Shown: positions 1-64,000, counted from the stretch's first letter. The stretch: 64,000 bases of DNA from an uncultured Acidobacteriaceae bacterium (GCA_963715875.1 OY970281.1:1135946-1199945), one strand, 5' to 3'. Program-made: numbers and translations. Notes: generated by a model not told the origin, from the sequence alone.

Positions 1-3000
1 CGCCGGTAGTTGGGACAACGCCGTTTCCGCCCCCCCAGCTCCGACTTGGATCACCATATTCCGCGATTGGTTCCCGTGCTGCATCCGAAACTCGCCATCC
101 TCGATCAACCAATGGTCGGGACCAGGAGCATTGCTCAATGCATGATTCGTGCACTGTGCCACCACTCCGCCCACCGGACTGCAAAACTGCAACGCCTGCG
201 TGTTCCCCGACGTCTCCACCGTCCACATCGACTGCGCATCGTTGTAATTCTCTGTGTTGATCGCGGTGCCATTCGCCAGCGTGTACGCGCATCCCGTCGC
301 GCAAAGTGTCACGCTCGCCCCATACGCATGCGCTTTGGTAAACGTAGCGTAGATTCCAATCTGGTTCGGCCCACTTTGTGCGGCAACAATTTCCTGATTC
401 GCCCCAGTGTCGACCGTGTACGAGTTCCCCGGTGCCACATACCCGTTCGTCAGGGGAATCACAACTGGAATCCCTCCCGAAACCATCGCACTACTCACCG
501 CCGCCAACGTAGTCGTATTCGCCGAGAGTGTCGTAATCCCCGTGATCACAGGCTGCGTGTTGAGATCGCCACTCGCAGTACTCGCCGCCAGACCACTTAC
601 GCAGGTTGGCCCCGAACCGTAGCACGAACTTGCCGTCAACACGGCCCCGCCCGCGCCTCCACTCAATATCGTCCAACTCGTGTTGTATCCCGTCGGCGCA
701 AAACTGCCCCCGCTCACATACAGCCCTACCGTAAAACTCGCCGGATAAGACGTCGCGCAATTACTTCCCGCAACCAGCGTGAACGTGGCTATGCTGCCCG
801 TCATCGACGCCGTCACGCATGAAGTTCCGCCCCCGCTTCCCGCATCCGCTTGCAGCCCTTGCGCCCCCAGCGCGTAGTACATGTTCTGCCCAGTGCAATC
901 TGGATTCACCAACCCGATGTCGCTGGAACTCGCAAGATCATCCTGCATCCCGTGTGCGCACACGATGTTTCCATCCGGCAAGCTCGCGTCCTGCGTCGAA
1001 CGCAGCACGAGAAAACTGCTCGATGTTGCCGAGTTCGTCTGTGGAATCGTCAACCCACTCGCGCTCGAATACAGTCCCGGAGGAATGTCCAGCGCGATAC
1101 CCACCCCCGTCGCCGTCCGGCACGCTTCGATATCGTTAATCGCCGACTGCAACCCGCTGCTGCTTGGCGCTCCCGTCCAATAAGGAGCGTGAAACGTGCA
1201 ACTCGGCGCAGGCCCACTGATCCATGTACCCGGCAACGAAAGCTCGTAACTGAACAGCGTGTCTCCCTCATGGCTGTTTACCCAGGTCTGAGGCAGCGTT
1301 ACCTGCACCGCGGTCGGAGCCGCAACTGTCTCCCCGATCGTGAACTCTCCCGGCCCTGTGCTTCCGCCATACGCCGCATACCCTTCGTACACGTGCGCTC
1401 CAATCTCCCACCCAGTCCCGTACGCGTTCTGGTTCACTCCGTTAATGTCAACCGCATACGCCGCTCCCAGATTCTGTCCCGCATCCACCACTGGAGAATT
1501 CTTCGTCGGACGAAAATCCAGCCCGCCTGCCGAAGAGAATCCGCTCGTCGCCGCCAGCTTGTAGTAATAATTTCCATCCGTCCCCGTCTCCTGCGCCCCG
1601 CCCAGCAGCCAGTTCACCAGCCCCGTATTTGTCAGGATCGTCGCCCCGCTCGCTTTGAAATCCTGAATCAGATTCGTGATCTCCGTGCCTCCCACCGGAT
1701 CGCTGTTCGTCAATTCGTTCACGTGCCAGAAAATTCCCCACGGAACTCCCCACACCGCCTCTTTCCACACCAGAGCCTGGATCTTCTCATTCAACGCCGT
1801 CGCTGGAATTCCCATCCACGTCGGGTTCACTCCAAAACTCGTAACGTTCTGCGCGTTGAATCCATCGGCGTACGTGTCCTTCACTCCCAAATCTTCTTTC
1901 AGCGCCCCCCGCGCCCCCGCATACGGCACGCCCGCCGTGATCCCCTGCATCGCCGTCGTTTCATATCCTCCCGGATACACATACACCGGCGTCGCCGGCA
2001 AGCCACTCAGGTTCTTCGTCATCCACTGCCGCGACAGCGTGATCTCGTCCGTCGTCAGCCGCGTTACATCCAATTGCATGGCATATACCGCGCTCTTCAC
2101 GTCCACTCCGCTCACATCCGCCAGGTCCTGTGCCAGCAGTGCCGCTTCGGTATATGCCGAACATCCCGTTCCGTAAGGCCCTTGGCATGTCTGGATTTCT
2201 GTCGCCGTAAACTTGCCCGTTGCCACCAGCGCCAGTCGCAGTCCTTGGATCGTCCCCTGCGCCTGACCCTGCGCCAGGTTGTAACTCACGCTGTCGCCCG
2301 TTGCGCCCGCCACCGTAATCGTCAAAGTCTTGTTGCCGATGCTCAACGCCGCCGCCGTCCCGCTCCCCTTGTATTGAATGTCCAGCGCGTCAAGATTTGT
2401 GTAATACGTGTGCGACATCGAATGCGCAACCACGTCCCGACCCGCATTCACCCATCCCTGAAACTCTCCCACCAGTGTCTGCGCCAGCGGATATCCCACC
2501 GTGATCGCCGCCCCCACTGGAACCCCCGCCGCATCCGCCACCGGCAACACCGTCCCCGCATAATACGTATCCGCGCCAGCCGTCATTCCCGCATCGTCCA
2601 CCGTCAGCGTGACCATTGCCGGATACCTCTGATACACCTGCACCGCCGGCGCCGTATCTGCCGCAATGTTCCCCGCACCCGCAGTCGGCCCTGTCCCGCT
2701 CGTCCACTCCACGTCCGTCGATCCCGCCACCGCCAGGCTCGATGCATAAAAGTGACAGTAGGAATAAGTTACGGCCCCTGTGTTGTCCACCAGCGCCCCA
2801 TCCCGATTCGCATAGCCTTTGTCATTCACCATCGCGATCGCCGTCGCCGCCCCATCAAACCTGAAGCCGTCGTAATTGAGGTGCGCCTCCGAGTTGAAAA
2901 TCTTGATGTCCCCCGGCCCCGGCGCGCTCTCATTCACATAAAATCCCAGCGGCTGCGTCCCTTGTGGAATCATCGAATCCGCTTCCATATTCGCGAACAC

Positions 3001-3663
3001 CAGATGATCACTCGCTCCCTGCACATACACGCCGTACTCATCGAACCAGTTCACCAGAAAATGCTGGAACGTCAGCCACGATTTCCCATTGACATTGATC
3101 ACCGGCACGTTGCTCAGCGCCATCGGCACGATCGCCGCGTTGTAATAACTTGCCGGACTCCCCACCGAATAAACGTACACATACCCGCTCGCCAGGAAAA
3201 AGTCCCACTGCGCCGTCAGGTTCGGCGACGCAGCGGCGACCTTTTGGCCCCACACCGATCCAAATAAACAAAAACTGATCGTCGTATAACTCGCCGGCAG
3301 CGGCGCCTTCCACGCATTCCCCGTCACCTGCACCCACGCCGTCGCCGGTACCGCGTAATATCCCGTCAGATTCGGCGCCGCCCCACTCCCATACGCGTCA
3401 AACGTAATCGGATTTCCCACACTCCCTGAAGAATTCGGAACCAGGCTCTCATTCCAAACATCCCCCCTCTTGAACAGAATCGAATCCCCCGCCAGAAACG
3501 TCTGCCCATTCACCTGCGCAACCGTCTGCCACGCCGCCGCCGCCGAACTCCCGCTATTAGCATCGTTCCCCGTACTCGAACTCACGTAGTAAGTAGTAGC
3601 CGAAGCCACTCCACTCCACACCATGAACACGAAGAGGATGATCTTCCGCCCGGCCTCGTACAT
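1..3663 (-). CDS. Secreted beta-helix protein with a NodB-like (polysaccharide deacetylase) segment and a tailspike-like distal part. The 5' end is complete and the 3' end lies beyond the window start.
   Basis: The minus-strand frame (codon first bases at positions divisible by 3) is open from ATG 3663 to position 1. Because it has no in-window stop it is absent from the ORF track, and no other minus-strand track ORF uses this frame in 1-3663. My translation starts MYEAGRKIILFVFMVWSGVASATTYYVSSSTGNDANSGSSAAAAWQTV (signal/anchor followed by a beta-helix-type N-terminus). It contains VTLTVDDAG (about 2590-2615) and VVAHSMSHTY (about 2405-2435), which resemble NodB motifs 1 and 2. Further on, GLQSAINDIEAC...LDIPPGLY resembles the start of a pectate-lyase-3/tailspike domain. 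The Arg-rich + strand ORFs 10..822 and 850..3267 are its antisense shadows. Confidence 0.6.
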   Translation of the reverse strand, partial: MYEAGRKIILFVFMVWSGVASATTYYVSSSTGNDANSGSSAAAAWQTVAQVNGQTFLAGDSILFKRGDVWNESLVPNSSGSVGNPITFDAYGSGAAPNLTGYYAVPATAWVQVTGNAWKAPLPASYTTISFCLFGSVWGQKVAAASPNLTAQWDFFLASGYVYVYSVGSPASYYNAAIVPMALSNVPVINVNGKSWLTFQHFLVNWFDEYGVYVQGASDHLVFANMEADSMIPQGTQPLGFYVNESAPGPGDIKIFNSEAHLNYDGFRFDGAATAIAMVNDKGYANRDGALVDNTGAVTYSYCHFYASSLAVAGSTDVEWTSGTGPTAGAGNIAADTAPAVQVYQRYPAMVTLTVDDAGMTAGADTYYAGTVLPVADAAGVPVGAAITVGYPLAQTLVGEFQGWVNAGRDVVAHSMSHTYYTNLDALDIQYKGSGTAAALSIGNKTLTITVAGATGDSVSYNLAQGQAQGTIQGLRLALVATGKFTATEIQTCQGPYGTGCSAYTEAALLAQDLADVSGVDVKSAVYAMQLDVTRLTTDEITLSRQWMTKNLSGLPATPVYVYPGGYETTAMQGITAGVPYAGARGALKEDLGVKDTYADGFNAQNVTSFGVNPTWMGIPATALNEKIQALVWKEAVWGVPWGIFWHVNELTNSDPVGGTEITNLIQDFKASGATILTNTGLVNWLLGGAQETGTDGNYYYKLAATSGFSSAGGLDFRPTKNSPVVDAGQNLGAAYAVDINGVNQNAYGTGWEIGAHVYEGYAAYGGSTGPGEFTIGETVAAPTAVQVTLPQTWVNSHEGDTLFSYELSLPGTWISGPAPSCTFHAPYWTGAPSSSGLQSAINDIEACRTATGVGIALDIPPGLYSSASGLTIPQTNSATSSSFLVLRSTQDASLPDGNIVCAHGMQDDLASSSDIGLVNPDCTGQNMYYALGAQGLQADAGSGGGTSCVTASMTGSIATFTLVAGSNCATSYPASFTVGLYVSGGSFAPTGYNTSWTILSGGAGGAVLTASSCYGSGPTCVSGLAASTASGDLNTQPVITGITTLSANTTTLAAVSSAMVSGGIPVVIPLTNGYVAPGNSYTVDTGANQEIVAAQSGPNQIGIYATFTKAHAYGASVTLCATGCAYTLANGTAINTENYNDAQSMWTVETSGNTQALQFCSPVGGVVAQCTNHALSNAPGPDHWLIEDGEFRMQHGNQSRNMVIQVGAGGAETALSQLPA

Positions 3664-3719
3664 CGCGTTCGTAGCTTTTGTCGGATCCTTCACAGCAATC
3701 TCTCCAATCTTGTTTTTCC

Positions 3720-3863: not shown

Positions 3864-3897
3864 ACCCCGTGATACCCCGTGTACCCCGTGGTAAAGG
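3864..3897 (+). repeat. Family D repeat (CCCTGTG-word doublet + GGTAAAG), copy 1
   Basis: ACCCCGTGATACCCCGTGTACCCCGTGGTAAAGG. Confidence 0.7.
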
Positions 3898-3974
3898 CCT
3901 TTGGCTTCGTCGCGCTTCGCCAAAGCCGTACAAGACCCAACCGACGGCTGACGGCTGACAGCTGACAGCTGGGC

Positions 3975-8973: not shown

Positions 8974-9067
8974 GTTGTCATCCTGAACAAGCGCTTTTTG
9001 CGCAGTGAAGGATCTGGGCGTGCCGCGCGAAGCTGCCTGCCCTGAGCAAGCGCAGCGCGCCGATGGG
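8974..9067 (+). repeat. Family A repeat, copy 1 (degenerate, followed by GCCTGCCCTGAG module)
   Basis: The family consensus is (T)TCTGTCATCCTGAGCG - central hairpin - GCAGTCGAAGGATCCCTA(CCC). This copy reads GTTGTCATCCTGAACAAGCGCTTTTTGCGCAGTGAAGGATCT. Confidence 0.6.
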
Positions 9068-9614: not shown

Positions 9615-9790
9615 TCCCACTCTGCGTCCTGTGCTGCGGATTTTTCCATCCGCGAGATTTCTCCCGGAAAACTCTCCCCGGACCCTTCCCGGAATCGCTC
9701 CCGCCATCTCTCTCCGGCGCGATCCCACTCGCGGCGAAACCGACAGCGCCATCGCCCTGTCCATCTCTCCCGCACCAAAACTCCCGCGCT

Positions 9791-10234
9791 TCATTTTACG
9801 GTATCCCCTCCACACGCACCCGTCTGTTCTTCTCCGCGCCCCCCGCGGATCTTCTCCGCGTTCTCCGCGCTGAAAGGCGTCAATCTGTCGTCCCGCAAGC
9901 GACCAGGTTCGTTGTTCTTCCCACACTCCGCAACCACCGGTTCCAGTGGCAGCCCCAGCCGCATCAGCAGAGTTCCCGCCAGCGAATTCTCCGGGAACGC
10001 CTCCCCCGTAGTCGCCTCCGTCGCCGGATACAACCCGACGATTTCAAACAAATACTTCATCGCGGCCAGCCGCGCACTATTTCCATCGTCAATCAGCGTA
10101 CCCACCATTCCGTTCGCCTTTTCGCCCACCAACTTGCTGATCCCTTTCCGCACCGCAACAAAATCCACCGCCAAATCCTCTTTCAACACGCCGTCGTTTT
10201 CAGTCACCCGCCCCCCCTGCTCCAATCTTGTCAT
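9791..10234 (-). CDS. Hypothetical protein
   Basis: Track ORF with ordinary composition and no recognisable domain. The C-terminal ...FSAENAEKIRGG is encoded by a CTCCGCG-word repeat, so the tail may be a repeat-derived extension. Confidence 0.45.
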   Translation of the reverse strand: MTRLEQGGRVTENDGVLKEDLAVDFVAVRKGISKLVGEKANGMVGTLIDDGNSARLAAMKYLFEIVGLYPATEATTGEAFPENSLAGTLLMRLGLPLEPVVAECGKNNEPGRLRDDRLTPFSAENAEKIRGGRGEEQTGACGGDTVK

Positions 10235-53348: not shown

Positions 53349-53371
53349 GGGACAGCCGCCCTCGGCTGTCC
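53349..53371. repeat. Family C hairpin, copy 3
   Basis: GGGACAGCCGCCCTCGGCTGTCC. Confidence 0.75.
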
Positions 53372-53387
53372 TACCGCGAACAACAGC

Positions 53388-53418
53388 TTTACCCTGTGCC
53401 CCCTGTGGTAAAGGTTTT
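53388..53418 (+). repeat. Family D repeat, copy 7
   Basis: TTTACCCTGTGCCCCCTGTGGTAAAGGTTTT. Confidence 0.7.
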
Positions 53419-53430
53419 AGAGGACTACCC

Positions 53431-53817
53431 ATGACCGACTGGTTCGCCCGCCCCATCCTGCACGTAACCGACGCCGAAGCCTCTCTCCGCTTCTACGTGG
53501 ACCGCCTCGGCTTCACCAGCCCCTGGCGCTACGACGAAAATGGCAAGCTGCACATCACCCAAGTCGATCGCCAAGGCTGCGCTCTGATCCTGGCCGACAC
53601 TTGGCCCGAGAAGGCCGGCAAAGCGGTGATGTTCATCTCCCTGAACGTTGAACCACCTACTCCCCAAGCCGCAACCGCCGCATTAGACGCCCTCCGCGCC
53701 GAACTCGAATCCAAAGGCGTCCCCGTAAAAGAAGGTTCCTGGGGCTACCGCCTCCTAGTAGTAGAAGATCCCGACGGCAATCAACTCCTCTTCAACTATC
53801 CCAAAGAAACCGCATGA
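53431..53817 (+). CDS. VOC (glyoxalase/bleomycin-resistance) family protein
   Basis: ILHVTDAEASLRFYVDRLGF...LLVVEDPDGNQLLF is diagnostic. The start is MTDWFARP; the longer track ORF begins inside a repeat. Confidence 0.8.
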   Translation: MTDWFARPILHVTDAEASLRFYVDRLGFTSPWRYDENGKLHITQVDRQGCALILADTWPEKAGKAVMFISLNVEPPTPQAATAALDALRAELESKGVPVKEGSWGYRLLVVEDPDGNQLLFNYPKETA

Positions 53818-53867
53818 AAAATTCGCGGCGCCCTAAAATTCGCGCTGAGCATCATCCCGTAAAACTA

Positions 53868-53975
53868 TCGTCCTGAGCGCAGCCGGGACCGACTGAACGT
53901 TCCTTAAGCTCTGTCATTCTGAGCGCAGCCCGGACGACCGTAGGGAGTCCCGGCTGAGTCGAAGAATCCCTACCC
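53868..53975 (+). repeat. Family A repeats, copy 10 (a partial unit followed by a full unit)
   Basis: TCGTCCTGAGCGCAGCCGGGACCGACTGAACG... is followed by CTCTGTCATTCTGAGCGCAGCCCGGACGACCGTAGGGAGTCCCGGCTGAGTCGAAGAATCCCTACCC. Confidence 0.75.
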
Positions 53976-54052
53976 GCACCACGGCCCCGTCCCCTCTTAG
54001 GCTTTACCCGCCCCAAACAAGCACATGTGGGGACAGCCGCCCCCGGCTGTCC
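53976..54052. repeat. Family C repeat with leader, copy 4
   Basis: ...CACGGCCCCGTCCCCTCTTAGGCTTTACCCGCCCCAAACAAGCACATGTGGGGACAGCCGCCCCCGGCTGTCC is followed by GGTTTTTG. Confidence 0.75.
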
Positions 54053-54066
54053 GGTTTTTGCGACCC

Positions 54067-55197
54067 CTAACCCCGCAGCCCCCGATCCAAATCCCCCCAA
54101 AGATCCTCCACATCCTCAATCCCCACGCTGAGCCGCAGCAAAGACGCCGGCAAATGTTCTTGCCCCAAAATCCCCGCCCGCCGCTCGATCGTCGATTCAA
54201 CCGCCCCCAAACTAGTCGCATGCTGGATCAGCTGCACCCTCCCGCACACCGCATCCGCCGCCGCCGCATCGCCACGCACATCGAACGAAATAATGGTCCC
54301 GAATCCCCGCAGCTGCCGTCGCGCCGCCTCATAGGTCGCATGGCTCTTCAGCCCCGGATACCGCGTCACGCTGACATTCGCATGACTCGCCAGCCGTTCT
54401 GCCAGCGTCATCGCATTGCGCTGCGCCCGCTCCAACCTCACTGCCAGCGTTCGCACTCCGCGCACCGCTAGAAAAGTTTCCAGCGTCCCCGGAGTCGCGC
54501 CCATCAGTTCCCTCGACTGCCGCAGCCCAGCCAGCATTTTCGCGTCGCGCACCGTGACCACTCCGCCCAGCAGGTCCGAGTGTCCGCCAATAAACTTCGT
54601 CACCGATTGCACCGCCGCATCCGCCCCCAACGCCAGCGGACGCTGGTTGAGCGGCGTAGCGAACGTATTATCCACGGCCAGGATCGTGCCCTGTTTTCGC
54701 GGTGCCGCACAGATCGTGTCCACGTCCGCCACCGTCAGCAAAGGATTCGACGGCGACTCCAGCCAGATCAAATCGGCCACGCCGCACATCTTGATCCACC
54801 CCGCCGTGTCAGTCACCGCCACGCGCTGCACCGTCCATCGCTGCCGGATCTCGCCCGCTTTCGCCAGGCCTCCAACTCCCTGATAGCAGTCATCCGGCAG
54901 TGCCACCACCGACCCGGCACGCAGTTGATCGAAGATCGCCGCGATTCCCGCCATCCCCGAAGCGAACGACAGCGACGATCCACCCTCAAGCCCGCCAACA
55001 ATTTCTTCGAGCGCCTCCCACCCCGGCGTTCCGTCGTCGCGCGAATATGCACGCTCCTCGCCCAGCACAAAATTCGACGCCGGCCACGGCGGCACATTCA
55101 GCGGAGCCCCCGCCCGTCGATCTCGCCCCGCCGAAACCACCCAAGATTCCACCGCAGCACCGCTTCCGTTGTGACGCATCGTATTGTTCGCTGTCAT
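54067..55197 (-). CDS. Cys/Met-metabolism PLP-dependent enzyme (cystathionine gamma-synthase/lyase family)
   Basis: DNTFATPLNQRPLALGADAAVQSVTKFIGGHSD contains the PLP-Lys motif. Confidence 0.88.
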   Translation of the reverse strand: MTANNTMRHNGSGAAVESWVVSAGRDRRAGAPLNVPPWPASNFVLGEERAYSRDDGTPGWEALEEIVGGLEGGSSLSFASGMAGIAAIFDQLRAGSVVALPDDCYQGVGGLAKAGEIRQRWTVQRVAVTDTAGWIKMCGVADLIWLESPSNPLLTVADVDTICAAPRKQGTILAVDNTFATPLNQRPLALGADAAVQSVTKFIGGHSDLLGGVVTVRDAKMLAGLRQSRELMGATPGTLETFLAVRGVRTLAVRLERAQRNAMTLAERLASHANVSVTRYPGLKSHATYEAARRQLRGFGTIISFDVRGDAAAADAVCGRVQLIQHATSLGAVESTIERRAGILGQEHLPASLLRLSVGIEDVEDLWGDLDRGLRG

Positions 55198-55282
55198 TGC
55201 TAGATTCTATCGAATGGAGGTTCGCCGAAGCCTGCACTACCACGAAAAAGGCTGAGGTAGCTCCGTGGAAACATCCCTAATA

Positions 55283-55373
55283 TTCTGTCGTCCTGAGCGA
55301 AGCTGGAACGACCGAAGGGAGTCCCGGCGCAGTCGAAGAGCCTGCCCCGAGCTTGTCGAGGGGACCCCTACCC
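55283..55373 (+). repeat. Family A repeat, copy 11 (long form with nested module)
   Basis: TTCTGTCGTCCTGAGCGAAGCTGGAACGACCGAAGGGAGTCCCGGCGCAGTCGAAG[AGCCTGCCCCGAGCTTGTCGAGG]GGACCCCTACCC. Confidence 0.8.
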
Positions 55374-55449
55374 GCTCCCCAGACCCGTCCCTCTGAGCTT
55401 CACCTGATCCCAAACAAGAACATGTCGGGACAGCCGCCCCCGGCTGTCC
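55374..55449. repeat. Family C repeat with leader, copy 5
   Basis: ...CCCGTCCCTCTGAGCTTCACCTGATCCCAAACAAGAACATGTCGGGACAGCCGCCCCCGGCTGTCC. Confidence 0.75.
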
Positions 55450-55458
55450 GGGGTTGGC

Positions 55459-55580
55459 TGGGATTTTCAACCTGAGGTGTGCCCAGTCCCAGCCGCAAAG
55501 CGGCGAAAGAATGCAGCCCACCGCGCAAGCGGTGGGTCACGAAAGGAAAACCAAGCAGAGCCCCAGCGGGGCGAAAGAGC
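55459..55580 (+). repeat. Family B repeat, copy 4 (with 5' extension)
   Basis: GGGATTTTCAACCTGAGGTGTGCCCAGTCCCAGCCGCAAAGCGGCGAAAGAATGCAGCCCACCGCGCAAGCGGTGGGTCACGAAAGGAAAACCAAGCAGAGCCCCAGCGGGGCGAAAGAGC. Confidence 0.85.
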
Positions 55581-55669
55581 CACCTGGCGCGCACCGAAAA
55601 GGGTGTCAGACAAAATCTGGCATGCAATAAGTCACGAAATTCGAGGAAACGGCAAGGTTCCAGCCGCGT

Positions 55670-55837: not shown

Positions 55838-55878
55838 TACCCCGTGTCCCTCTGTGCCCCCTGTGGTAAAGATTTTTC
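55838..55878 (+). repeat. Family D repeat, copy 8
   Basis: TACCCCGTGTCCCTCTGTGCCCCCTGTGGTAAAGATTTTTC. Confidence 0.75.
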
Positions 55879-55904: not shown

Positions 55905-58472
55905 TTAGTGCTTCAGCACGCAAATGCGTCCTTTGCATCCGGTTTTGGGCGGCGCTGTTGCCTGAGTCGTAACCGCAAACACGTAAGATGTGATGTTCCC
56001 GATTAATCCCTGCGCCGCTCCGGTGGAAGTCGCATCCTGGCCGTCCGTGGCAAAGGCATACAGAATGTGCTGGCCCGCTAATAAGGTTGGCGCCGTGCCG
56101 GTGAAATTGGGCTCCATACCGGACGCGCGCAGCCACGTTCCTTGCCACGTATCGAACTGGTACCACACCGCCTGCGGCGTGGTGTTCGTGGGAGTGAACG
56201 AACTGGCCGCAGTGAAATTAAATGTGGGTGTGGCGCTGGCGGTCACATTGCCGGTTAGCGGAGTAATCACCGTGGTCAGCGGGATCGTCTGCACCTGCTG
56301 TTCCGCGATGACGCTGACAGTTTCGTCACTATAGTTCGTGGCATAGAGCAGGCCTGCCGGTGCGTTGACGGCTATGGCATTGGGGCCCTCTCCTGCCGGA
56401 ATGTAATTAACCGCACTGGTTGCGCCATCGATCACCGCAATAAAATCCCCGTACTGTTTCGATTGGCCGCCCACATAGATCTTGTTAGTGGCAACATTCA
56501 CGTCCACATAGGTGGGTTCCAAAACGCAGCCGTAGTTACAGATGTTGATCGTCGAGGGCGTATTGGTTGCGCCGTTGATGGCTACCAGGCCACCCACCCA
56601 GGTCACCGCATAGATCATGTTGGTCACGGGGTTGACGACCAAGTCGAGAGGATAAGTCTGACTCTCGCTGATCCCAAGAGTGACCGTCGTGGTAACCGAA
56701 TTCGTGGCGCCGTTTATCACGGTAACATTGTCGCTGTCGGAGTTCGCCACGTAAACCATATTGGTCGCCGGATTCACGGCCACCATATAGGGGACCAGCG
56801 CCTTCGGGTCGGTAATCGTCGTGCTCGTGTTGGTGGCTCCGTTGATCACGGTGACGCTCCCGTTGCCAGTACCGTAATAGCAACCAGCGCCACAATCGGC
56901 CACGTAAATTTCATCCGTCACCGGATTCACCGCCAGGGCCACCGGGGCGCTGCCCGTCGCCACGGTTTGTGTCGCAAGCGTTGCGCCGTTTAAGACGGTG
57001 ACGTCGTTGCTGCCGGCGGGGCCGGTGCCACCATAGACGCCGAAGTTGCAGATGTAGATTTTGTTGGTTACAGGATTCACGCCGACGCACGCGGGTCCGA
57101 GTCCGGTTGAGAGCACGGTTTGGGTGTCAAATGTGGCCCCATTGACTATGGAGATATCGTTACTGATATTGTTGGTCACATAGACCATTTCCGTCACCGG
57201 ATTCACGACCGCCGCTACCGGGCCGTATCCTACTCGGAGCGCTGCGTCGTAATACCCGTCAACGTACATCAGTTCGTCGCTGCTGTAGCTGGGCACGTAG
57301 GTCCAACCAGAAGATGGGTCCACCGCCGGGCGCTCCAGCAGTGCGTCGGTGCCGAAGGTTTGTGTTGCATAAGTGGATCCGTCGATGACCGAGACGTTGT
57401 TGCTGCCGAAATTGGCCACGTAGATTTTGTCGGTGATCGGGTTGACAGCCAGCACCCGGACATTCAGCGCGTTTGCGTCCTTTATCGTGGCGGTCACGGT
57501 ATTGGTCGCACCGGCAATCACCGAAACGTTGGAGCTTGTGTTATTCCCTACATAAATCTCGTTGTTCAGCGGATTCACGGCTACACACACGGGGGTAGTC
57601 CCGACCGCGACCGTGGCCGCGACTGCATTGGTCGCGCCGTTGATCACCGTGACATTATTGCTGCCCTCATTGGTCGTGTAGATCATATTGGTCACCGGAT
57701 TGACCGCGATGGCATACGGCGAAGTTCCCGCAACGACCGTAGAAGCCGCATTGGTCGCGCCGTTAATCACCGTTACGTTGGCGCTGCCGGTGTTGGTCAC
57801 ATAGATCATGTTGGTGATGGGGTTGATGGCGACCGCCCAGGGACGCGTCCCGGCGGCGATCGTGGCCGTCACTTTATTGCTGGCGCCATTGATCACCGAC
57901 ACGTTATTGCCGCCGTAGTTCGGCACATAAATCATTCCCGTAACCGGATTGACAGCGACCGCCCAGGGATTCGTCCCCACGTTGATCGTAGCCGTCACCG
58001 CATTGGTCGCGCCGCTGATTACACTGACGGTGTTGCCCGCCGAGTTCACTACGTAGATCATGTCGGTCACGGGGTTGATCGCGATGAACAGCGGGTTCGC
58101 TCCCACCGGCACCGAGGTGGTGATCGCGTTGGTCGCACCGTTTATCACCGTAACCGTGTTACTGCCGTTGTTGGCCACATAAATCGTATTGGTCTCCGGA
58201 TTCACGGCAACGCCCGCCGGAGTGATCCCGACGCTGAGCGTGGCCGCGACCGTGCTGGTGGCGCCATTGATCACCGTGACGGTGTTGCTGAACTCGTTGG
58301 CCTGGTAAATCATGTTGGTGACGGGGTTCACCGCAGAGTACTCGGGAGAGACTCCGACGGCGATTGTGGTAGTAACGAATTGCGCGTACAGAGGATGGAG
58401 CGCGAGCAGACAAACAAAAATGGCTGACAAGAATTTGCCGGGAAACTGGTGCCGTTCGCTGAGCGTTCTCAT
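55905..58472 (-). CDS. YVTN-family beta-propeller repeat protein (855 aa, secreted)
   Basis: There are at least 15 tandem ~40-aa units of the type VGxxPxAVAVNPVTNMIYVxNxGSNNVTVINGATNxV. A GGAG RBS precedes ATG 58472. Confidence 0.9.
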   Translation of the reverse strand: MRTLSERHQFPGKFLSAIFVCLLALHPLYAQFVTTTIAVGVSPEYSAVNPVTNMIYQANEFSNTVTVINGATSTVAATLSVGITPAGVAVNPETNTIYVANNGSNTVTVINGATNAITTSVPVGANPLFIAINPVTDMIYVVNSAGNTVSVISGATNAVTATINVGTNPWAVAVNPVTGMIYVPNYGGNNVSVINGASNKVTATIAAGTRPWAVAINPITNMIYVTNTGSANVTVINGATNAASTVVAGTSPYAIAVNPVTNMIYTTNEGSNNVTVINGATNAVAATVAVGTTPVCVAVNPLNNEIYVGNNTSSNVSVIAGATNTVTATIKDANALNVRVLAVNPITDKIYVANFGSNNVSVIDGSTYATQTFGTDALLERPAVDPSSGWTYVPSYSSDELMYVDGYYDAALRVGYGPVAAVVNPVTEMVYVTNNISNDISIVNGATFDTQTVLSTGLGPACVGVNPVTNKIYICNFGVYGGTGPAGSNDVTVLNGATLATQTVATGSAPVALAVNPVTDEIYVADCGAGCYYGTGNGSVTVINGATNTSTTITDPKALVPYMVAVNPATNMVYVANSDSDNVTVINGATNSVTTTVTLGISESQTYPLDLVVNPVTNMIYAVTWVGGLVAINGATNTPSTINICNYGCVLEPTYVDVNVATNKIYVGGQSKQYGDFIAVIDGATSAVNYIPAGEGPNAIAVNAPAGLLYATNYSDETVSVIAEQQVQTIPLTTVITPLTGNVTASATPTFNFTAASSFTPTNTTPQAVWYQFDTWQGTWLRASGMEPNFTGTAPTLLAGQHILYAFATDGQDATSTGAAQGLIGNITSYVFAVTTQATAPPKTGCKGRICVLKH

Positions 58473-58800
58473 AAGAATCTCCTTTTCCTTTGCCAGAACC
58501 GCGGGCGATACGTTGGAGAGAGACCGGAAAACCCGGCGTGATCCTGCGTTAGGCCGTGGTTCGCATCTGCGATGGGGTTGCGTGGTTGTTGCTCACGTCG
58601 ATTTCGCGCTTCCGGCCTGCGGGGGAATAGATTGCGGGCGAGCGACGGGCGCAGTTCCAGCCCAATAAGATCACAACCACGGTGAACGCGCGGTGACGAC
58701 TGACAGCACGAAAGGTGATATATCGCACTTGGGGACCCTTAGAGCAAATGGGCCCCGCAAGTATTCCGCATGTATTACAGATCTGCAGCCGAAAAGCCCC

Positions 58801-58890
58801 AGCCGCGAAGCGGCGCAAGAATGCAGCCCACCGCGCAAGCGGTGGGTCACGAAAGGAAAATTAAGCAGAGCCCCAGCGGGGCGAAAGACC
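58801..58890 (+). repeat. Family B repeat, copy 5
   Basis: It is almost identical to copy 4 across the core. The trailing CGCTAACGGTGAC(T/C)ACCAT is shared with copy 6. Confidence 0.85.
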
Positions 58891-58983
58891 ACCCCTCACG
58901 CGCTCACGAACGGGCGCTAACGGTGACTACCATTCCTCACATAAAGCAGCCCCGCATTTCTGCGAGGCTGCTTGGAATGATGC

Positions 58984-61900
58984 CTACTTCCCGGTTCCCG
59001 TCAGGCTGACAGTCTGCGGGCTGTTGTTGCCGCTGTCGTTGAGGCTCATCGTCGCCGTGCGTGTGCCTTTGGCTTGCGGAGTAAATGTCACCGAAATCGT
59101 ACACCTCGCCTTGCTGGCGACCGTGCTGCCGCAGGTGTCGGTCTCAGCAAAATCCCCTGGATCAGCACCCGTGAACGTGACACCTGTAAAGCTGAGAGCT
59201 GAAGGCAGTTCGTTGGTTAAGGTTACTTTCTTGGCCAGACTCGTTGTGCCCACAGTCTGTGAGGCAAATGTAAGGCTGGTTGGGGTCCAGGTCACTTGAG
59301 CCTCACCTTTTCCCGTCAACGAAACCGTCTGCGGGCTGCTCAGCGCGCTGTCAGTCAGCGTCAACACGCCACTACGCGTGCCCGTACTCGACGGCGTAAA
59401 ACTGACTTTAATAGTGCACGATTTTCCCGGAGCGATCGACCCCGTGCAAGTATTGGTCTGGGCAAAATCGCCGCCGTTGGCGCCGGAGATCACGATACTC
59501 GTGAAGGTCAGCCCGTAGGTTGTCCCGGTGTTCTTCACGGTCACGCTCTTTGTCGCGCTAGTGGTGTCGATTGCCTGGGTGGCAAAGCTCAAGCTCACCG
59601 GCGTCACGGTTACGGTTGTCCCCGGAGTAGTTCCGGTTCCGCTGAGGTAGGCCACTTGCGGACTGTTCGCCCCGCTATCGCTGATCAGGAGTGCGCCTTC
59701 GAGCAGTCCTGTTTCAGTCGGCGAAAAGTAAACGGTGATGACGCAACTCGTTCCAGCGGCGATACTCGATCCACAGTTGTTGCCCTGCGTAAAGTTGGTG
59801 GTCGCTTCAATCAGGGTAAACGTGATGGCCTGGCCGCCGTTATTGGTCAGCAGCACAGGCTGGCCTGCGCTCGTTGTGCCGACAAGTTGATTGCCAAAGC
59901 TGAGGCTGGTGGGCGATACGCTGACCGCGGCAACATACACCTGCTCGCTGAGCACCGAAGAAGTGCTGCCGAGGTTGTTCGCATCTCCGCTGTAGCTGGC
60001 GGTGATGCTGTGGGAACCAGCGGCCAGCGCCTGCGTGAACCAGGTCGTCTGTCCGTTCGTTCCCACCGAGGTACTACCCACATTCGTGGCCCCGTCAAAG
60101 AACGTCACGGTTCCCGTCGGAGTTCCGGTGCCCGGATAATTCTCGGTTGTGCTTGCGGTGAACTGGATCCACTGCCCCGCGTCAGCGGGGTTGGGGTTTG
60201 AGCTCAGGGTCGTGGCCGTGCTCGCAGGAACGACAGCGAACAAGTAGGCGGCCTTGAAGCCAATCAACTGCTGCTCCACCCCGGTCGAGGTTGAATCCTG
60301 GCCATCGGTGGCGAAGGCGTAGATGACGTGAATGCCCAAGGGCACCCCTGTTAGGGTCGCGCCGAAATACGGCGCTACTCCTGAGGCGCGCAGCCACGGA
60401 CCCTGGAAGCTGTCAAGCTGATACCACACGGCTTGCGGCGTCGGAGCCGTCGGCCCGAAGGAACTGGTCGCGGTGAAGTCGAAAGTGATGGGGCCCTGCA
60501 CCGTCTGGTTGTTGGGCAGGGTCGAAATCGTAGTGGTGAGCGGGATGGCATACACTTGCTGCTCCGCGATCACGTTGACGTTGTCGCTGGCGAGACCGTA
60601 ATTCACCACGTAAATCCTGGGGTACAACGGATTGAATGCCATCTGATAAGGGTTAACGCCCACAGCTATGGTCTCGGTTCCGTTGCTCGCGCCATCAATC
60701 ACGGTGAGGCTGCTGCCGAGTGAGTTGGAGACATAGATCTTGTTGCTCAACGGATTCACCAGCACAGCCCCAGGAATTTGGCCCACGGCGATAGTTTTCG
60801 TCGCATTGGTAACTCCGTTGATGATAGAAACTGTATTGTCCTGCGCGTTCACGACGTAAATGTTGTTGGTTTGCAGGTTCACGGCCACGGCACTGGGATA
60901 TTTCCCGACCGTGATGGTCTGGGTGGCATAGGTCACGCCATTGATCACCGTAACCGTCCCGGCGAATGTATTGGCGACGTAGATCATGTTGGTAAGCGGG
61001 TTCACGGCTAAAGCCGTGGAACCGTATCCAGTCGATATCGTCTGCGTCGCATTGGTGACGCCATCAATCACGGTCACATTGAAGCTGTTCCCGTTAGCGA
61101 CAAAGATCTTGTTGGTGACCGGATTCACGGCCACGGCTATGGGATACGTTCCGGTCGGAATCGTCTGGGTGGTATTCGTCGCGCCATTGATCACGCTGAC
61201 ATTATTGCTCTGGCAATTCGCCACGTAGATCATGTTGGTCAATGGATTGATATCGAGGGCGATGGGACCGGAACCCACATTCACTTCCTGGGTGGCATTG
61301 GTTTCCCCGTCGATCACCGTCACCGTGCTCGCGTTGCCCCCGTTGTAGTTGGGAACATAAATAGTGTTGGTCAGCGGGTTCAAGGCAACCGCGTACGGAG
61401 TTGTGCCCGCAGGCACAGTCTGGGTGGTCAAAGTCACGCCGTTGATGACGGTGACGTTATTGCTATCCTGATTCGGTACGTAGATTGTGTTGGTCTCCGG
61501 ATTCACCGCGACTCCATACGGAACGGATCCCGCAGCCACAGTCTGAGTCGTATTGATCGCGCCATCGATGACGGTGACGTTGTTGCTTCCATGATTGGCG
61601 ACGTAAATTCGGTTGCTTGTGGTGTCGGAAGCGATAGCGTCAGGATTGCTTCCAACAACGGCCGGCATGTTGGTGGTGATATTGGTCACGCCGTCGATTA
61701 CAGTGACGTTGCTGCCGGTGTAATCGGCCACGTAAATCCTGTTTGTCAGCGTGTTGACGGTTACCGAGAGGGGCTCTCCCCCGGTCGCTACCGTCTGAGT
61801 TGCGTTCGTTGCGCCATTAATCACCGTGACAGTGTTGCTGCTCGCATTCGTCACGTAGATCATATTGGTCACCGGGTTCACCGCTACCGCGTACGGATAC

Positions 61901-62622
61901 GTTCCCGTAGTTACGGCTTGGGTCGCGTTGGTCGCGCCATTGATGACCGTGACACTGTTGCTGCCCTTATTTGATACGTAGATCGTATCGGTCACCGGGT
62001 TCACCGCCACCCCGACGGGGCCTGACCCCACGGGTACGGTCTGGGTGGCATTGGTCGCTCCATTGATTGCGGTGACGTTATTGCTGCCATAGTTGGCGAC
62101 GTAGATCATATTAGTCGCCGGGTTCACTGCCACCGCGATGGGGGCTGACCCCGCAGGTACGGTCTGGGTGGCATTGGTCGCTCCATTGATGACTGTGACG
62201 TTATTGCTCTCATAGTTTGTCACGTAAATCATGTTTGTCACTGCATTGACGGCCACGGCGGTGGGATTGCTGCCCGCGCTGACCGTCGTAGTTGCGTTGG
62301 TCGCGCCGTTGATCACGGTCACGGTGCCGCCATCATTGGCTACATAGATGGTGTTGGTCAGGGCGTTTACCGCTACCGCGGCAGGCTCGGTCCCGACCGG
62401 AACCACGGTGGTCGAATTCGTCAGTCCGTTGATCACCGTGACGCTGTTGCCTAGTATGTTGGCGACGTAGATGGTGTTGGTCTCCTGGTTGATGGCTACG
62501 GCGTTGGGACCGGTACCAGCGGGCACCGTGCCTAGTACCGTCTGGCTCGCGGTCACACCGGAAATCACGATGACGAACAAGAACGCGATGAAAAGCTTTT
62601 GTGACTTGGGAAGAGTGCGCAT
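58984..62622 (-). CDS. YVTN beta-propeller repeat protein with C-terminal Ig-like (Big_3-like) and four choice-of-anchor-D/ASH-like domains
   Basis: It has the same YVTN units, followed by VTFFDGATNVGS...SHSITASYSGDANN, and then repeated units of the type LSFGNQLVGTTSAGQPVLLTNNG...C...I.V.F.P...G. An AAGGAG RBS precedes ATG 62622 (MRTLPKSQKLFIAFLFVIVISG). Confidence 0.9.
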   Translation of the reverse strand: MRTLPKSQKLFIAFLFVIVISGVTASQTVLGTVPAGTGPNAVAINQETNTIYVANILGNSVTVINGLTNSTTVVPVGTEPAAVAVNALTNTIYVANDGGTVTVINGATNATTTVSAGSNPTAVAVNAVTNMIYVTNYESNNVTVINGATNATQTVPAGSAPIAVAVNPATNMIYVANYGSNNVTAINGATNATQTVPVGSGPVGVAVNPVTDTIYVSNKGSNSVTVINGATNATQAVTTGTYPYAVAVNPVTNMIYVTNASSNTVTVINGATNATQTVATGGEPLSVTVNTLTNRIYVADYTGSNVTVIDGVTNITTNMPAVVGSNPDAIASDTTSNRIYVANHGSNNVTVIDGAINTTQTVAAGSVPYGVAVNPETNTIYVPNQDSNNVTVINGVTLTTQTVPAGTTPYAVALNPLTNTIYVPNYNGGNASTVTVIDGETNATQEVNVGSGPIALDINPLTNMIYVANCQSNNVSVINGATNTTQTIPTGTYPIAVAVNPVTNKIFVANGNSFNVTVIDGVTNATQTISTGYGSTALAVNPLTNMIYVANTFAGTVTVINGVTYATQTITVGKYPSAVAVNLQTNNIYVVNAQDNTVSIINGVTNATKTIAVGQIPGAVLVNPLSNKIYVSNSLGSSLTVIDGASNGTETIAVGVNPYQMAFNPLYPRIYVVNYGLASDNVNVIAEQQVYAIPLTTTISTLPNNQTVQGPITFDFTATSSFGPTAPTPQAVWYQLDSFQGPWLRASGVAPYFGATLTGVPLGIHVIYAFATDGQDSTSTGVEQQLIGFKAAYLFAVVPASTATTLSSNPNPADAGQWIQFTASTTENYPGTGTPTGTVTFFDGATNVGSTSVGTNGQTTWFTQALAAGSHSITASYSGDANNLGSTSSVLSEQVYVAAVSVSPTSLSFGNQLVGTTSAGQPVLLTNNGGQAITFTLIEATTNFTQGNNCGSSIAAGTSCVITVYFSPTETGLLEGALLISDSGANSPQVAYLSGTGTTPGTTVTVTPVSLSFATQAIDTTSATKSVTVKNTGTTYGLTFTSIVISGANGGDFAQTNTCTGSIAPGKSCTIKVSFTPSSTGTRSGVLTLTDSALSSPQTVSLTGKGEAQVTWTPTSLTFASQTVGTTSLAKKVTLTNELPSALSFTGVTFTGADPGDFAETDTCGSTVASKARCTISVTFTPQAKGTRTATMSLNDSGNNSPQTVSLTGTGK

Positions 62623-62892
62623 GACAGTCTCCTTTACGCCTGTTCGATGGGCTTGGAGGAAGGGCCTTTCCGGAAGCAATTGCGGGACGGCTACGGGGGA
62701 CGGCAAGTCGTGTGCTTCCCTACAGCCCGATGTAACCCAGGAATCAGAGCGTTCTGCCTCAGGGCAGGGTCGCGTTCCATGGCAGGAAAGTGCTCTTACG
62801 AGGAGGCGCCTCAATATAGTCCAAAAGCGCGAAGAAGTCGGTGACCTGAGTCACCTAACGACGTGGGGGCTGGCCCACCTTTGCCGTAACAG

Positions 62893-62962
62893 CCACAACC
62901 GAGGATGCCCCACCTTTGCGTCCTTTGCAAAAGCCTGCCCTGAGCTTGCCGAAGGGGTGGGC
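62893..62962 (+). repeat. Family H-related unit with nested module
   Basis: CCACAACCGAGGATGCCCCACCTTTGCGTCCTTTGCAAA[AGCCTGCCCTGAGCTTGCCGAAGG]GGTGGGC. Confidence 0.6.
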
Positions 62963-63190: not shown

Positions 63191-63231
63191 TGCATGTATT
63201 CGTCCTGCGGTCGAACAAACACCCAGCCCAC

Positions 63232-63320
63232 AGCCGCGAAGCGGCGCAAGAATGCAGCCCACCGCGCAAGCGGTGGGTCACGATAGCAAAATCAAGCAGA
63301 GCCCCAACGGGGCGAAAGAG
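63232..63320 (+). repeat. Family B repeat, copy 6
   Basis: AGCCGCGAAGCGGCGCAAGAATGCAGCCCACCGCGCAAGCGGTGGGTCACGATAGCAAAATCAAGCAGAGCCCCAACGGGGCGAAAGAGC. Confidence 0.85.
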
Positions 63321-63350
63321 CAGCGCTAACGGTGACCACCATCTCTAAAG

Positions 63351-63440
63351 CTGTGTCTTCCTGAGCGCAGCCGGAACGACCGGAGGGAGTCCGGCGCAGT
63401 CGAAGAGCCTGCCCCGAGCCTGTCGAGGGGATCCCTACCC
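63351..63440 (+). repeat. Family A repeat, copy 12 (long form with nested module)
   Basis: CTGTGTCTTCCTGAGCGCAGCCGGAACGACCGGAGGGAGTCCGGCGCAGTCGAAG[AGCCTGCCCCGAGCCTGTCGAGG]GGATCCCTACCC. Confidence 0.8.
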
Positions 63441-63457
63441 GCGCCATTGCTCCTGCT

Positions 63458-63781
63458 TCACTTCCTATTCAGATATGACTCCAGGCACACGACGCTGTGC
63501 CCGTCATGCCCCTGGACGACGTGCCATCCGCGACCCTTGGCATAATCGTGCAGAACCGCTCCACTCATCCCCGTGAGCGTCTCGGCCTCCGCCAGGCCAA
63601 CCATGTCCACATCGCAACCACACTGCGGGCACCAGGCGCGCATCGACCGTCGCCGCCGGATCGTCACGGTTCGCTGCGTTTCGATGGTGATCTCGGTCCT
63701 TTTATAAGGAGTCATTCCACCTCCCGCGTGCGTAATGCGTAGCGTTTGCGCCCCTTCGGGCTTCAGGATGACGGGCATCAT
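63458..63781 (-). CDS. Hypothetical protein with a CPQCG zinc-ribbon-like knuckle
   Basis: Track ORF. The start ATG 63781 overlaps the stop of the upstream gene (ATGA). No family recognised. Confidence 0.45.
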   Translation of the reverse strand: MMPVILKPEGAQTLRITHAGGGMTPYKRTEITIETQRTVTIRRRRSMRAWCPQCGCDVDMVGLAEAETLTGMSGAVLHDYAKGRGWHVVQGHDGHSVVCLESYLNRK

Positions 63782-64000
63782 TCGTGCTTCCAATTCACCG
63801 AGAAGCTCGTCCCGTCCGTCGTGAGAGCGGTCGTGCTCGCCGCCGTTTCGCCCCCATCGACCATATTGATCTTCGTTCGGTTGCTGAACAGACCGATCCC
63901 TCCCGTGACCGCGCTATCGATCGCCCAATCGGTGCCGAGGATCAGCGTGTTGTCCCCGCCGGAATTGACGGTGCCAAAATCCATGAGGGGCGGCAGGGTT
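63778..64000 (-). CDS. Hypothetical protein, C-terminal part (the frame stays open to the window end)
   Basis: The track ORF starts at 63984, but the codons upstream of it (T L P P L) are open to position 64000, so the real start probably lies outside the window. Confidence 0.4.
   Translation of the reverse strand, partial: TLPPLMDFGTVNSGGDNTLILGTDWAIDSAVTGGIGLFSNRTKINMVDGGETAASTTALTTDGTSFSVNWKHE

Follow-up and report, generated by a model that had tools for sequence, protein, structure and literature searches.

The polar intergenic repeats of a 64,000-nucleotide stretch of DNA from an uncultured Acidobacteriaceae bacterium (GCA_963715875.1, OY970281.1:1135946-1199945; the window, with positions counted from its first letter) have their closest described counterparts in REP/RAYT systems, IS200/IS605 insertion sequences, TIRtrons and the polar motifs KOPS and Chi. 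REP/RAYT systems of Proteobacteria (REPtrons, REPINs) combine high-copy extragenic hairpin repeats, clustered in mosaics of modules and lying mostly between convergent and tandem genes but rarely in divergent spacers, with a single-copy, vertically inherited Y1 HUH gene placed between inverted copies of its own repeat; replication-linked polarity of REPs is not reported in PMC3333891 or PMC3733652. IS200/IS605 elements such as IS608 and ISDra2 encode Y1 HUH transposases (PF01797/NF033573) and show a chromosome-wide orientation bias that arises from one-strand action on single-stranded DNA (ssDNA) of the lagging-strand template at the replication fork (PMC3971601; PMC6006769). Y1 genes with repeat arms are also known in Acidobacteria (PMC3733652; PMC6006769). 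Di Nocera 2013 described TIRtrons, in which Y1 genes (TIRYT) lie between inverted repeats that also form genomic repeat families, and Quentin 2018 described class 3 Y1 genes and hairpins with a CnGA foot, with about 600 copies in Solibacter usitatus. We think it probable that the window is an arm of a Terriglobales (Acidobacteriota) chromosome with an unusually strong replication-type strand asymmetry and intergenic DNA dense in REP-like repeats, and that one of these repeats, R1, is a non-autonomous partner of a single-copy Y1 HUH transposase, its polarity arising from ssDNA exposed at the fork.

Four families, R1 to R4, were defined from the window, and their nhmmer profiles were run on both strands (E<0.01). 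Every match lies on the + strand: 6/6 for R1 (about 95 nucleotides (nt), 6 copies), 11/11 for R2 (about 65 nt, TCTGTCATCCTGAGCG-hairpin-GCAGTCGAAGGATCCCTAC), 5/5 for R3, which terminates in a hairpin (GGGGACAGCCG..CGGCTGTCC), and 9/9 for R4, in which three CCCYGTG words are followed by GTAAAGRYTTT and whose 9 copies lie at 8 loci. The chance of such uniform orientation, taken as 2^-(n-1), is 1/32, 1/1024, 1/16 and 1/256, respectively. Rfam, independently of nhmmer, assigns the six R1 copies to a single strand; a covariance model again finds R2 on the + strand throughout; the shared tail GT(T)AAAGRYTTT occurs nine times on the + strand and never on the - strand; and the short signatures GCCTGCCCYGAG, GTCATYCYGARC and AGTSGAAGRRTC are distributed 8:0, 6:0 and 6:0 between + and -. 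Self-BLAST of the window yields about 60 intergenic repeat pairs, all direct (+/+) save those of self-palindromic word elements, which make up the inverted pairs (14947-15260, 16935-17010, 19882/20277, 21049-21151 and 33914-34007). The sequence-only reading that preceded this analysis had claimed that every located copy is written in the + orientation, and the two-strand scans and self-BLAST bear this out; its counts (12 copies of family A, our R2; 6 of family B, our R1; 8 loci of family D, our R4) are right to within one or two. By eye, 4-5 further degenerate R2 copies can be recognized beyond the 11 matches.

The copies occur in all four gene contexts. They lie in tandem + + spacers (DDAH/mfd, mfd/galU and mntR/Nramp), in tandem - - spacers (purE/purD, panB/dNK, CysMet/YVTN1, YVTN1/YVTN2 and giant/giant), in convergent spacers (LexA-like/12927-14555, OprB/MazE, VOC/CysMet and galU/purE) and in divergent spacers (panC/18090 and purD/mntR). 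The six R1 copies, all on one strand, comprise three that follow + genes and three between - genes. The earlier claims that orientation is independent of gene direction, and that a terminator tied to gene direction cannot explain it, both stand: copies keep one orientation whether a + gene or a - gene precedes them, whereas the hairpin and U tract of an intrinsic terminator would be oriented with the upstream gene. Within the window alone, "the same way" has no definition across families; it becomes meaningful through other genomes, in which the families all relate to strand skew in one way.

The window has a G+C content of 59%, and its + strand is C-rich, with a strongly negative GC skew of -0.2 to -0.3 over 1-36 kb that weakens beyond. 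A gene map built from Pfam matches places LexA-like S24 peptidase, MPG, OprB, DDAH-like, mfd, galU, mntR, Nramp, TPR protein, DUF3224 and VOC genes on the + strand, and two giant proteins, panC, panB, dNK, aminotransferase, purE, purD, seven paralogues at 37-48 kb, an FG-GAP protein, a Cys/Met enzyme and two YVTN-propeller proteins on the - strand. Skew at third codon positions (GC3 skew), in + strand letters, is -0.45 to -0.75 in genes of either orientation (1-36382 and 50128-55197, where overall skew is about -0.25), for example -0.54 in mfd and -0.68 in Nramp on the + strand and -0.63 in purD and -0.62 in panC on the - strand. Because it is alike in genes of both orientations, the asymmetry is a property of the strand, not of transcription. 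GC3 skew falls to between near 0 and +0.25, inside a region of about -0.55, at 37044-49230, 55905-62814 and 20314-21033, which hold the seven-paralogue cluster and FG-GAP gene, the two YVTN-propeller genes and dNK. Since the repeats beside and among these genes keep the + orientation, none of the segments is inverted; the genes may have been acquired recently or may have a special codon use. To our knowledge, GC3 skews of 0.5 or more are extreme for a bacterial chromosome; loci in related metagenome-assembled genomes (MAGs) reach 0.4-0.75 (L111, L158). A survey of sequenced genomes found Acidobacteria to have the lowest strand composition bias among the phyla compared (PMC4613354).

What does the orientation follow, if not the genes? 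A scan with the R1 core across species-representative genomes other than the window's own gave at least 118 stretches of 8 kb (L001-L118) from about 100 Terriglobales MAGs. Genes were called with a skew-neutral, self-trained model, and GC3 skew was averaged over + and - genes, which removes the effect of gene direction. In these loci raw skew alone splits the R1 orientations 42+41 versus 7+2. Mean GC3 skew is -0.23 in + genes and -0.14 in - genes where R1 lies in the window orientation, and +0.13 and +0.22 where it is reversed (Fisher p=3e-16). With the transposase-bearing loci left out, 109 solo R1 copies have their window orientation on the C-rich strand and 12 do not, and where |GC3 skew| is at least 0.2 the split is 52 to 0. 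Counted as one vote per locus, R1 agrees with GC3 skew in 96/108 (p=2e-17), and it does so in every class of flanking genes (++ 44/49, +- 32/38, -- 18/21 and -+ 5/5). Along the 4.4 Mb contig CAWDXI010000002.1, R1 lies in +, - and + orientation at 0.57, 2.06 and 3.12 Mb, where the skew is -, + and -. The proposal of the sequence-only reading that orientation is set relative to replication is supported for R1: the comparison with GC skew came out as predicted, and orientation flips with skew along one contig, a proxy for a switch between origin and terminus.

The other families were followed in the same R1-selected foreign loci. R2, by its covariance model, is concordant in 21 copies and discordant in 3; R3 is concordant in 14:0, most of its copies lying more than 500 nt from any R1; and R4 in 2:0. 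Signature motifs fall on the C-rich strand in ratios of 14:3, 12:2, 12:0, 10:0 and 4:0. A metagenome scan with the R2 core returned 1 match, and two viral scans gave only chance matches in low-GC contigs. R2 has 24 matches in 1.1 Mb of these loci, and R4 is almost absent from the roughly 100 related genomes, so its polarity rests mainly on the 9/9 in the window. For R1 the reading of the polarity as replication-linked has support, for R2 and R3 the orientation data support it well, and for R4 it is a possibility. Chance, base composition or a search artefact could be suspected since all profile seeds came from the + strand, and since R4 and the word elements are C-rich on a C-rich strand. Both strands were scanned, however, the same relation holds in independent genomes, and the window-orientation strand of R1 is itself G-rich (G>C) and T-poor yet sits on the C-rich genomic strand, so base composition cannot explain its orientation. 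We regard an artefact as hardly credible, and for R1, R2 and R3 the data already contradict it.

R1 has a previous description of another kind. Its first two hairpins are the motif of Rfam RF01687 (Acido-Lenti-1), a motif that appears in the list of Weinberg et al. 2010 as a probable non-coding RNA of Acidobacteria and Lentisphaerae, with no further analysis in the main text (PMC2864571). Five window copies score 49.5-56.7 bits, above the gathering threshold of 37, and the sixth falls below it; the Rfam sense lies on the - strand of the window. Based on 147 distinct copies, the full R1 unit runs with sharp ends from AGCCGC to GCGAAAGA; it is twice as long as the Rfam motif, with a third hairpin and a GAAAGA end. 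Compensatory changes are present in the stems of the three hairpins; in hairpin 2, C-G/G-C swaps affect three positions. The loops of the window-orientation strand read GAA in 139/147 copies, GNRA in 141/147 copies and mostly GNA, whereas the strand modeled by Rfam has UUC/UUGC loops. R1 also differs from the Rfam entry in being dispersed and in its link to a transposase, which together with the skew-linked polarity speaks for a DNA-level repeat, and its loops fit the strand opposite to the Rfam model.

The Rfam listing as a candidate small RNA (sRNA) and the compensatory changes raise the possibility that the elements act as RNA, be it as sRNA genes, stabilizers of 3' untranslated regions or terminators, with their orientation following transcription. 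On the Rfam-sense strand the hairpins are followed by U-rich tracts, and R1 is rarer between genes that would transcribe that sense (-- 21, opposed) than between co-oriented genes (++ 49). We consider this account very unlikely. R1 orientation follows skew in every gene context, including - - and divergent spacers, and the window copies share one strand irrespective of their neighbors; inverted copies bracket a transposase gene, and the loop motifs favor the other strand. Since orientation ignores gene direction, an RNA or terminator role cannot set it, but such a role may shape where copies are tolerated. The repeats lie mostly in convergent and tandem spacers and rarely in divergent ones (41/38/14/5). 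The twofold excess of R1 between co-oriented genes, together with the coding-strand shares given below, suggests selection on where R1 is tolerated, perhaps because its other sense carries terminator-like hairpin-U tracts.

A concrete pointer to a mechanism comes from the 7/118 listed loci that hold R1 in both orientations. In 6/7 (L018, L024, L032, L034, L103 and L111), the copies are turned toward each other at a distance of about 445 nt, and between them lies an open reading frame (ORF) of 148 aa, MSHTSGNILLHFIFST..DHVHLLI..WQTGYGVFSVS..KYIAAQEEHH..RYIWD. The upstream arm, in the window orientation, has its end (..GGGGCGAAAGA) 2-5 nt ahead of the start codon, and the second arm, inverted, follows the stop codon; for the upstream arm, the strand with the GAA, GNRA and GNA loops is the sense strand of the gene. 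The same cassette with R1 arms is present in L125, L147, L153, L158, L160 and L164, and tblastn detects the gene in two more loci, L045 and, in part, L028. The protein matches Pfam Y1_Tnp (PF01797) at E=1e-21 and NCBIfam transpos_IS200 (NF033573) at 68.5 bits (cut-off 55), but reaches only 17.3 bits against REP_Tyr_transpos (RAYT, NF047646; cut-off 80) and so lies outside the RAYT family as modeled there. Its best relatives in the PDB are the TnpA proteins of ISDra2 and IS608, with which the HUH motif (DHVH) and the catalytic tyrosine (KYIAAQ) align. Its homologues in the protein collection number 3148, many of them named RayT by JGI. The gene is single-copy, at one syntenic locus per species, and in this it resembles RAYT genes and not multi-copy insertion sequences. 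In most cases the locus sits, in divergent orientation, about 1 kb upstream of the 16S end of the rRNA operon.

Some further features of these loci may be recorded. In L125 (2705-10550), L103, L147, L158, L160 and L164 the gene adjoins an rRNA operon while the genes on its other side vary. It lies within about 2 kb of a negative-to-positive switch of GC3 skew, of the origin type, in L018, L024, L125/L126, L147, L158 and, in unrelated context, L153; no dnaA was seen within 10 kb of the cassette, and L164 and L160, which have no switch, led us to reject the switch as a rule. Both R1 arms have the same orientation in L045 (7180-7872) and L164 (1324-1982), a stop codon interrupts the L111 gene, and the L032 frame stops about 15 codons before reaching the conserved C-terminus; because of these same-way arms, stop codon and short frame, some cassettes look decayed or rearranged.

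Which strand leads at the window can be approached through skew. The G-rich strand is usually the leading strand, and under this rule the + strand of the window would be the lagging strand, the strand with GNA/GNRA loops would be the leading-strand template, and the Rfam-sense strand would be the lagging-strand template. In Acidobacterium capsulatum CP001472 the + strand of the record is G-rich at 0.73 Mb, which corresponds to the standard polarity if base 1 lies near the origin, as we take it to do. L126 and L125 have a negative skew on the left side of the rRNA operon and a positive one on the right side of the Y1 cassette. With the operon directed away from this switch, it is co-directional with replication only under the standard rule. 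Attempts to assign the strands from tRNA genes (6:3) and from gene-strand bias conflicted, 57% of coding length being on the C-rich strand in the R1-selected loci versus about 70% on the G-rich strand in the window.

We propose the following model. Y1 transposases work on one strand of ssDNA, and ssDNA is exposed asymmetrically at the replication fork. By a first route, R1 copies would be inserted in one orientation only, as IS608 is; by a second, copies with the active strand on the exposed template would be excised or deleted, leaving the other orientation to survive. By either route the polarity would become near absolute, switching with the replichore and independent of gene direction; the transposase would move R1, and the polarity would arise at the fork. 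R2, R3, R7 and R8, which are also hairpin elements, might follow the same logic with enzymes of their own or a shared one, although no transposase link was found for R2, R3 or R4. The suggestion in the sequence-only reading of spread through ssDNA by a Y1 enzyme is accordingly borne out in part: the flanked transposase supports it for R1, it is plausible for the other hairpin families, and it leaves R4, which has no hairpin, unexplained.

The loops bear on the choice between these routes. DNA minihairpins of exceptional stability, such as d(GCGAAGC), have loops of the GAA, GNRA and GNA kinds, and the R2 apex carries the same GCGAAGC/CCGAAGG motif. Minihairpins of the form xC-GNA-Gx' are distributed 44:12 in intergenic DNA of the window, as against 93:94 in coding DNA. 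The loop sequences suggest that the window-orientation strand is the one that folds. The computed ssDNA folding energies of the two R1 strands are near equal (-24.2 vs -23.0 kcal/mol), and G.T and A.C mismatches (8 vs 9) show no strand preference, so the folded strand is a suggestion only. Loops on what would be the leading-strand template fit a model in which copies are lost and survivors remain; the loop evidence thus favors the excision or deletion route, and the IS608 precedent favors the insertion route. Polarity might also arise after insertion and without any transposase, if stable GNA/GNRA hairpins were lost by slippage or SbcCD-type cleavage on the lagging-strand template. Such loss would suit the loop counts, the excess of intergenic minihairpins and the predicted placement of the loop strand on the leading-strand template, and it would account for the agreement of several hairpin families. 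The near-equal energies and mismatch counts speak against it, it leaves R4 unexplained, and a mechanism of spread would still be needed. We judge it an unlikely explanation.

Several points weigh against R1 as the partner of a Y1 transposase acting at the fork. The search for a Y1 gene advocated by the sequence-only reading succeeded in related genomes, where an IS200-type gene lies between inverted R1 copies, but neither gene nor remnant is present within the 64-kb window. The mobility of R1 itself, and its being driven by the transposase, are what we infer from the flanked gene and the skew polarity; a conserved flank or target motif around R1 was sought in the 147 copies and none was found. 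The direction of replication rests on skew, and its calibration by rRNA orientation and A. capsulatum is thin. Under the skew rule, the strand that the loops would mark as folded serves as leading-strand template, contrary to the paradigm of IS608 insertion. The greater frequency of R1 between co-oriented genes indicates that some gene-linked selection acts as well. Finally, R4 and the CTCCGCG-type elements form no hairpin on either strand, and as both are equally polar in the window, an enzyme that recognizes hairpins offers no obvious explanation for them.

R4 and its word variants share one architecture, a word repeated three times and then GTnAAAGnnTTT, with CCCYGTG, CTCCGCG or CCTTAGCGG as the word, and they often lie 10-80 nt from a stop codon. 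A polar host function, or something like it, would be needed for these hairpin-less elements. It is conceivable that a strand-specific function at the DNA level, comparable to KOPS/FtsK, Chi/RecBCD or lagging-strand processing, keeps the orientation of all the families, the Y1 enzyme serving to seed the repeats or being irrelevant; the sequence-only reading had named a KOPS- or Chi-like function as its second candidate cause. Polarity that is near absolute at strong skew and common to unrelated families would agree with this, as would a Y1 gene that is conserved, single-copy and host-like; the complement of the CCCYGTG type contains three G4-5 runs, and such GGGG runs on the G-rich strand loosely resemble G-rich KOPS. 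Against it, the elements are 35-100 nt long, diverse and lineage-specific, unlike a conserved 8-mer with a conserved motor, and R4 and R2 are as scarce in the related genomes as described above. A host function of this kind therefore seems rather improbable to us. A variant that we put forward as a long shot is that a domesticated Y1 gene maintains replichore-polar hairpin arrays across the genome as marks of chromosome strand and direction for replication, repair or segregation. If true, a KOPS-like polarity system would have been built, and would be policed, by an ssDNA transposase, with several families subject to it, hairpin-less ones included.

How does R1, read as the partner of a Y1 transposase, compare with the described systems? 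Each of the traits of REP/RAYT systems given at the outset, from mosaics of hairpin repeats and their placement between genes to the single-copy gene between inverted copies of its own repeat, recurs here. R1 differs in that its protein scores as IS200-type and not RAYT; in lacking a GTAG/GTRG foot, its consensus beginning AGCCGCGAAGCGGC with no conserved flank; in being a 92-nt module of three hairpins instead of a palindrome of 20-40 nt; and in occurring solo and in one orientation, with inverted pairs only around the Y1 gene, whereas REPs form inverted doublets (BIME/REPIN). With IS200/IS605 elements it shares the transposase type and an orientation bias relative to replication, as read from skew (109:12). 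Unlike those elements, the R1-linked gene is single-copy and syntenic, not multi-copy and autonomous, its cassette ends are inverted copies of one element and not distinct left and right subterminal hairpins, and the polar objects are gene-less 92-nt units with a polarity of about 90-100%, stronger than the reported bias of insertion sequences. KOPS and Chi likewise have an orientation tied to replication direction and independent of genes, but they are 8-mers read by conserved host motors, whereas the present repeats are structured, lineage-specific and of several families.

TIRtrons share with R1 a Y1 gene with long terminal inverted repeats that are also present as a repeat family. The TIRYTs published for Acidobacteria (aca 645, tsa 392, aba 3477) are RAYT-like and of another subfamily, with MPEHVH..WQ..YDFNV..NPVKRGLV in place of NGTADHVH..WQTGYG..YIAAQEEHH; their A. 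capsulatum flanks carry hairpins of the GGGTGCCCCA type (R7), not R1, and strand polarity was not reported. We rejected them as the enzyme of R1 or R3 in view of these R7-type flanks, where no R1-R4 profile matched. In A. capsulatum CP001472 (about 0.73 Mb; L133), the RAYT-like ACP_0645 is preceded at 9730-10000 by four tandem same-way GGGTGCCCCACATCTCGCAGAGATGTGGG hairpin units and followed at 10826-10960 by an R2-like GTCATCCTGAGG..GAAGGATCC unit and another GGTGCCCCA hairpin. All of these are in the orientation predicted from local skew, and beside a related gene in L137, in a region of opposite skew, the same hairpin type is reversed. Y---Q--HH, the motif of subclass 1.2 in the scheme of Quentin et al., is present in the R1-linked protein; they described that subclass as lacking IS-like ends. 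The foot of R2 is CTGA/CCGA, and a link between R2 and class 3 Y1 genes is possible. Y1-transposase-associated repeats are thus the known part of the present findings; the new part is the near-absolute replichore polarity together with an unusual transposase subfamily.

The individual copies, all on the + strand, are as follows. Detected by nhmmer, R1 occupies 12673-12770 (AGCCGCGAAGCGGC...GGGGCGAAAGA, three hairpins; E=1e-27; Rfam 52.2 bits on the opposite strand, 12677-12722), 36605-36707 (the most diverged copy; E=4e-25; Rfam 34.1 bits, 36611-36656, below the gathering score), 52026-52130 (Rfam 56.7 bits), 55485-55585 (49.5 bits, in a composite R2-R3-R1 array at 55284-55585), 58796-58897 (52.2 bits, between the two YVTN genes, folding as ssDNA into three hairpins on either strand, z=-3.7) and 63230-63327 (52.2 bits, followed directly by R2). 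R2 (TCTGTCATCCTGAGCG-hairpin-GCAGTCGAAG...), with covariance model scores in bits, lies at 12788-12856 (65.5, also found by nhmmer; a variant with a terminal GCCTGCCCCGAG module), 19995-20032 (33.3, inner hairpin deleted), 25221-25289 (83.2), 26922-26990 (86.9), 31629-31689 (51.8, with 2-3 degenerate GTCATTC-type units after it at 31760-31845), 32459-32528 (79.4, with compensatory inner-stem changes, GTGAATGC...GCACTCAC, seen in the alignment), 34786-34855 (79.1, the same inner-stem variant), 53908-53976 (85.4, followed directly by R3), 55282-55350 (76.5) and 63350-63417 (69.9); a fragment at 53866-53889 was found by nhmmer (E=0.0096). R3 (..ATCCCAAACAA..ATGTGGGGACAGCCGCCnnCGGCTGTCC) was detected by nhmmer at 17973-18047 (E=1e-23), 53978-54052 (E=2e-21) and 55385-55449 (E=4e-19), and as the hairpin part only at 25144-25173 (E=5e-6) and 53341-53371 (E=2e-7), the latter overlapping the start of the called VOC ORF.

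R4 was found by nhmmer at 3867-3901 (E=7e-9; three CCCYGTG words and GTAAAGRYTTT, without a hairpin), 30684-30718 (9 nt past the mfd stop codon), 34001-34039 (in the divergent purD/mntR spacer), 34901-34936, 40003-40039, 53390-53418 and 55843-55877 (28 nt from the YVTN1 stop codon), the first, second and fourth of these also by the tail scan. Self-BLAST and nhmmer both detect its long form at 36966-37024, which is unstructured on both strands and has 75 nt in common with 39921-39995, and at 39936-39995. The CTCCGCG-word elements, reported earlier as same-oriented, are present and all direct: at 9828-9885 and 21939-21990 (GTCTAAAGCTTT tail), by self-BLAST and signature scan, with the R4-like architecture and another word, and at 16002-16050, by signature scan, as a CCTTAGCGGA-word element with a ..CTCAAAGGCTTTT tail. 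Signature scans also locate GCCTGCCCTGAG modules at 9033-9062 (approximate extent, with an R2-like GTCATCCTGAACA unit just upstream at 8975-9030), 47838-47873 and 62927-62961 (both also by self-BLAST) and, with a degenerate R2-like unit, at 49452-49525, as well as a GCCTGCCCTGAGCGAAGCCGAAGGG module at 41655-41690 (approximate extent). By the same scans, R7, the GGTGCCCCA-hairpin element of the type arrayed beside the A. capsulatum RAYT-like gene, lies at 17937-17977, with an R7-like copy at 62903-62935, and R8, a GGCACGAC...GTCGTGCC hairpin that falls 10:0 on the C-rich strand in other genomes, at 36503-36527, 39840-39878 (GGGAAGGGCACGACGTTTAGTCGTGCC) and, truncated, 41640-41662.

A separate intergenic class consists of tandem words of 6-8 nt (AGAAGT, TCATTGA, GGTACTA, CAACGAC and GCAACTC) at 14947-15260, 16935-17010, 18860-18895, 19882-19924/20277-20319, 21049-21151, 32555-32594 and 33914-34007. 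These elements often have long inverted arms around 30-350 nt, lie at gene ends and in divergent spacers and, being symmetric, carry no polarity. At about 14470-14946 (+) a peroxiredoxin/Bcp-like protein can be recognized by eye (..VVLYFYPRADTPGCT.E.C.F.D..), followed by an AGAAGT word element; it overlaps the 5' part of an unannotated ORF at 12927-14555 (-), which may therefore be shorter or spurious. At 53341-53420, copies of R3 and R4 extend over codons 1-25 of the VOC ORF as called (53344-53817), whose Pfam match begins at residue 37 and whose true start is probably downstream of the repeats.

What is the relevance of these repeats for the Acidobacteriota? With them, an orphan Rfam "sRNA" would become the DNA partner of a Y1 transposase, and lineages of Acidobacteria with third-codon GC skews of at least 0.5 are brought to light. 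The polarity of REP-like elements relative to the replichore can be almost absolute, and R1 would provide a natural system for asking which process, insertion or strand-specific excision, lies behind the polarity that ssDNA transposases impose. The repeats may also serve, within this order of soil bacteria, as a ready-made compass of replication direction in fragmented metagenome assemblies.

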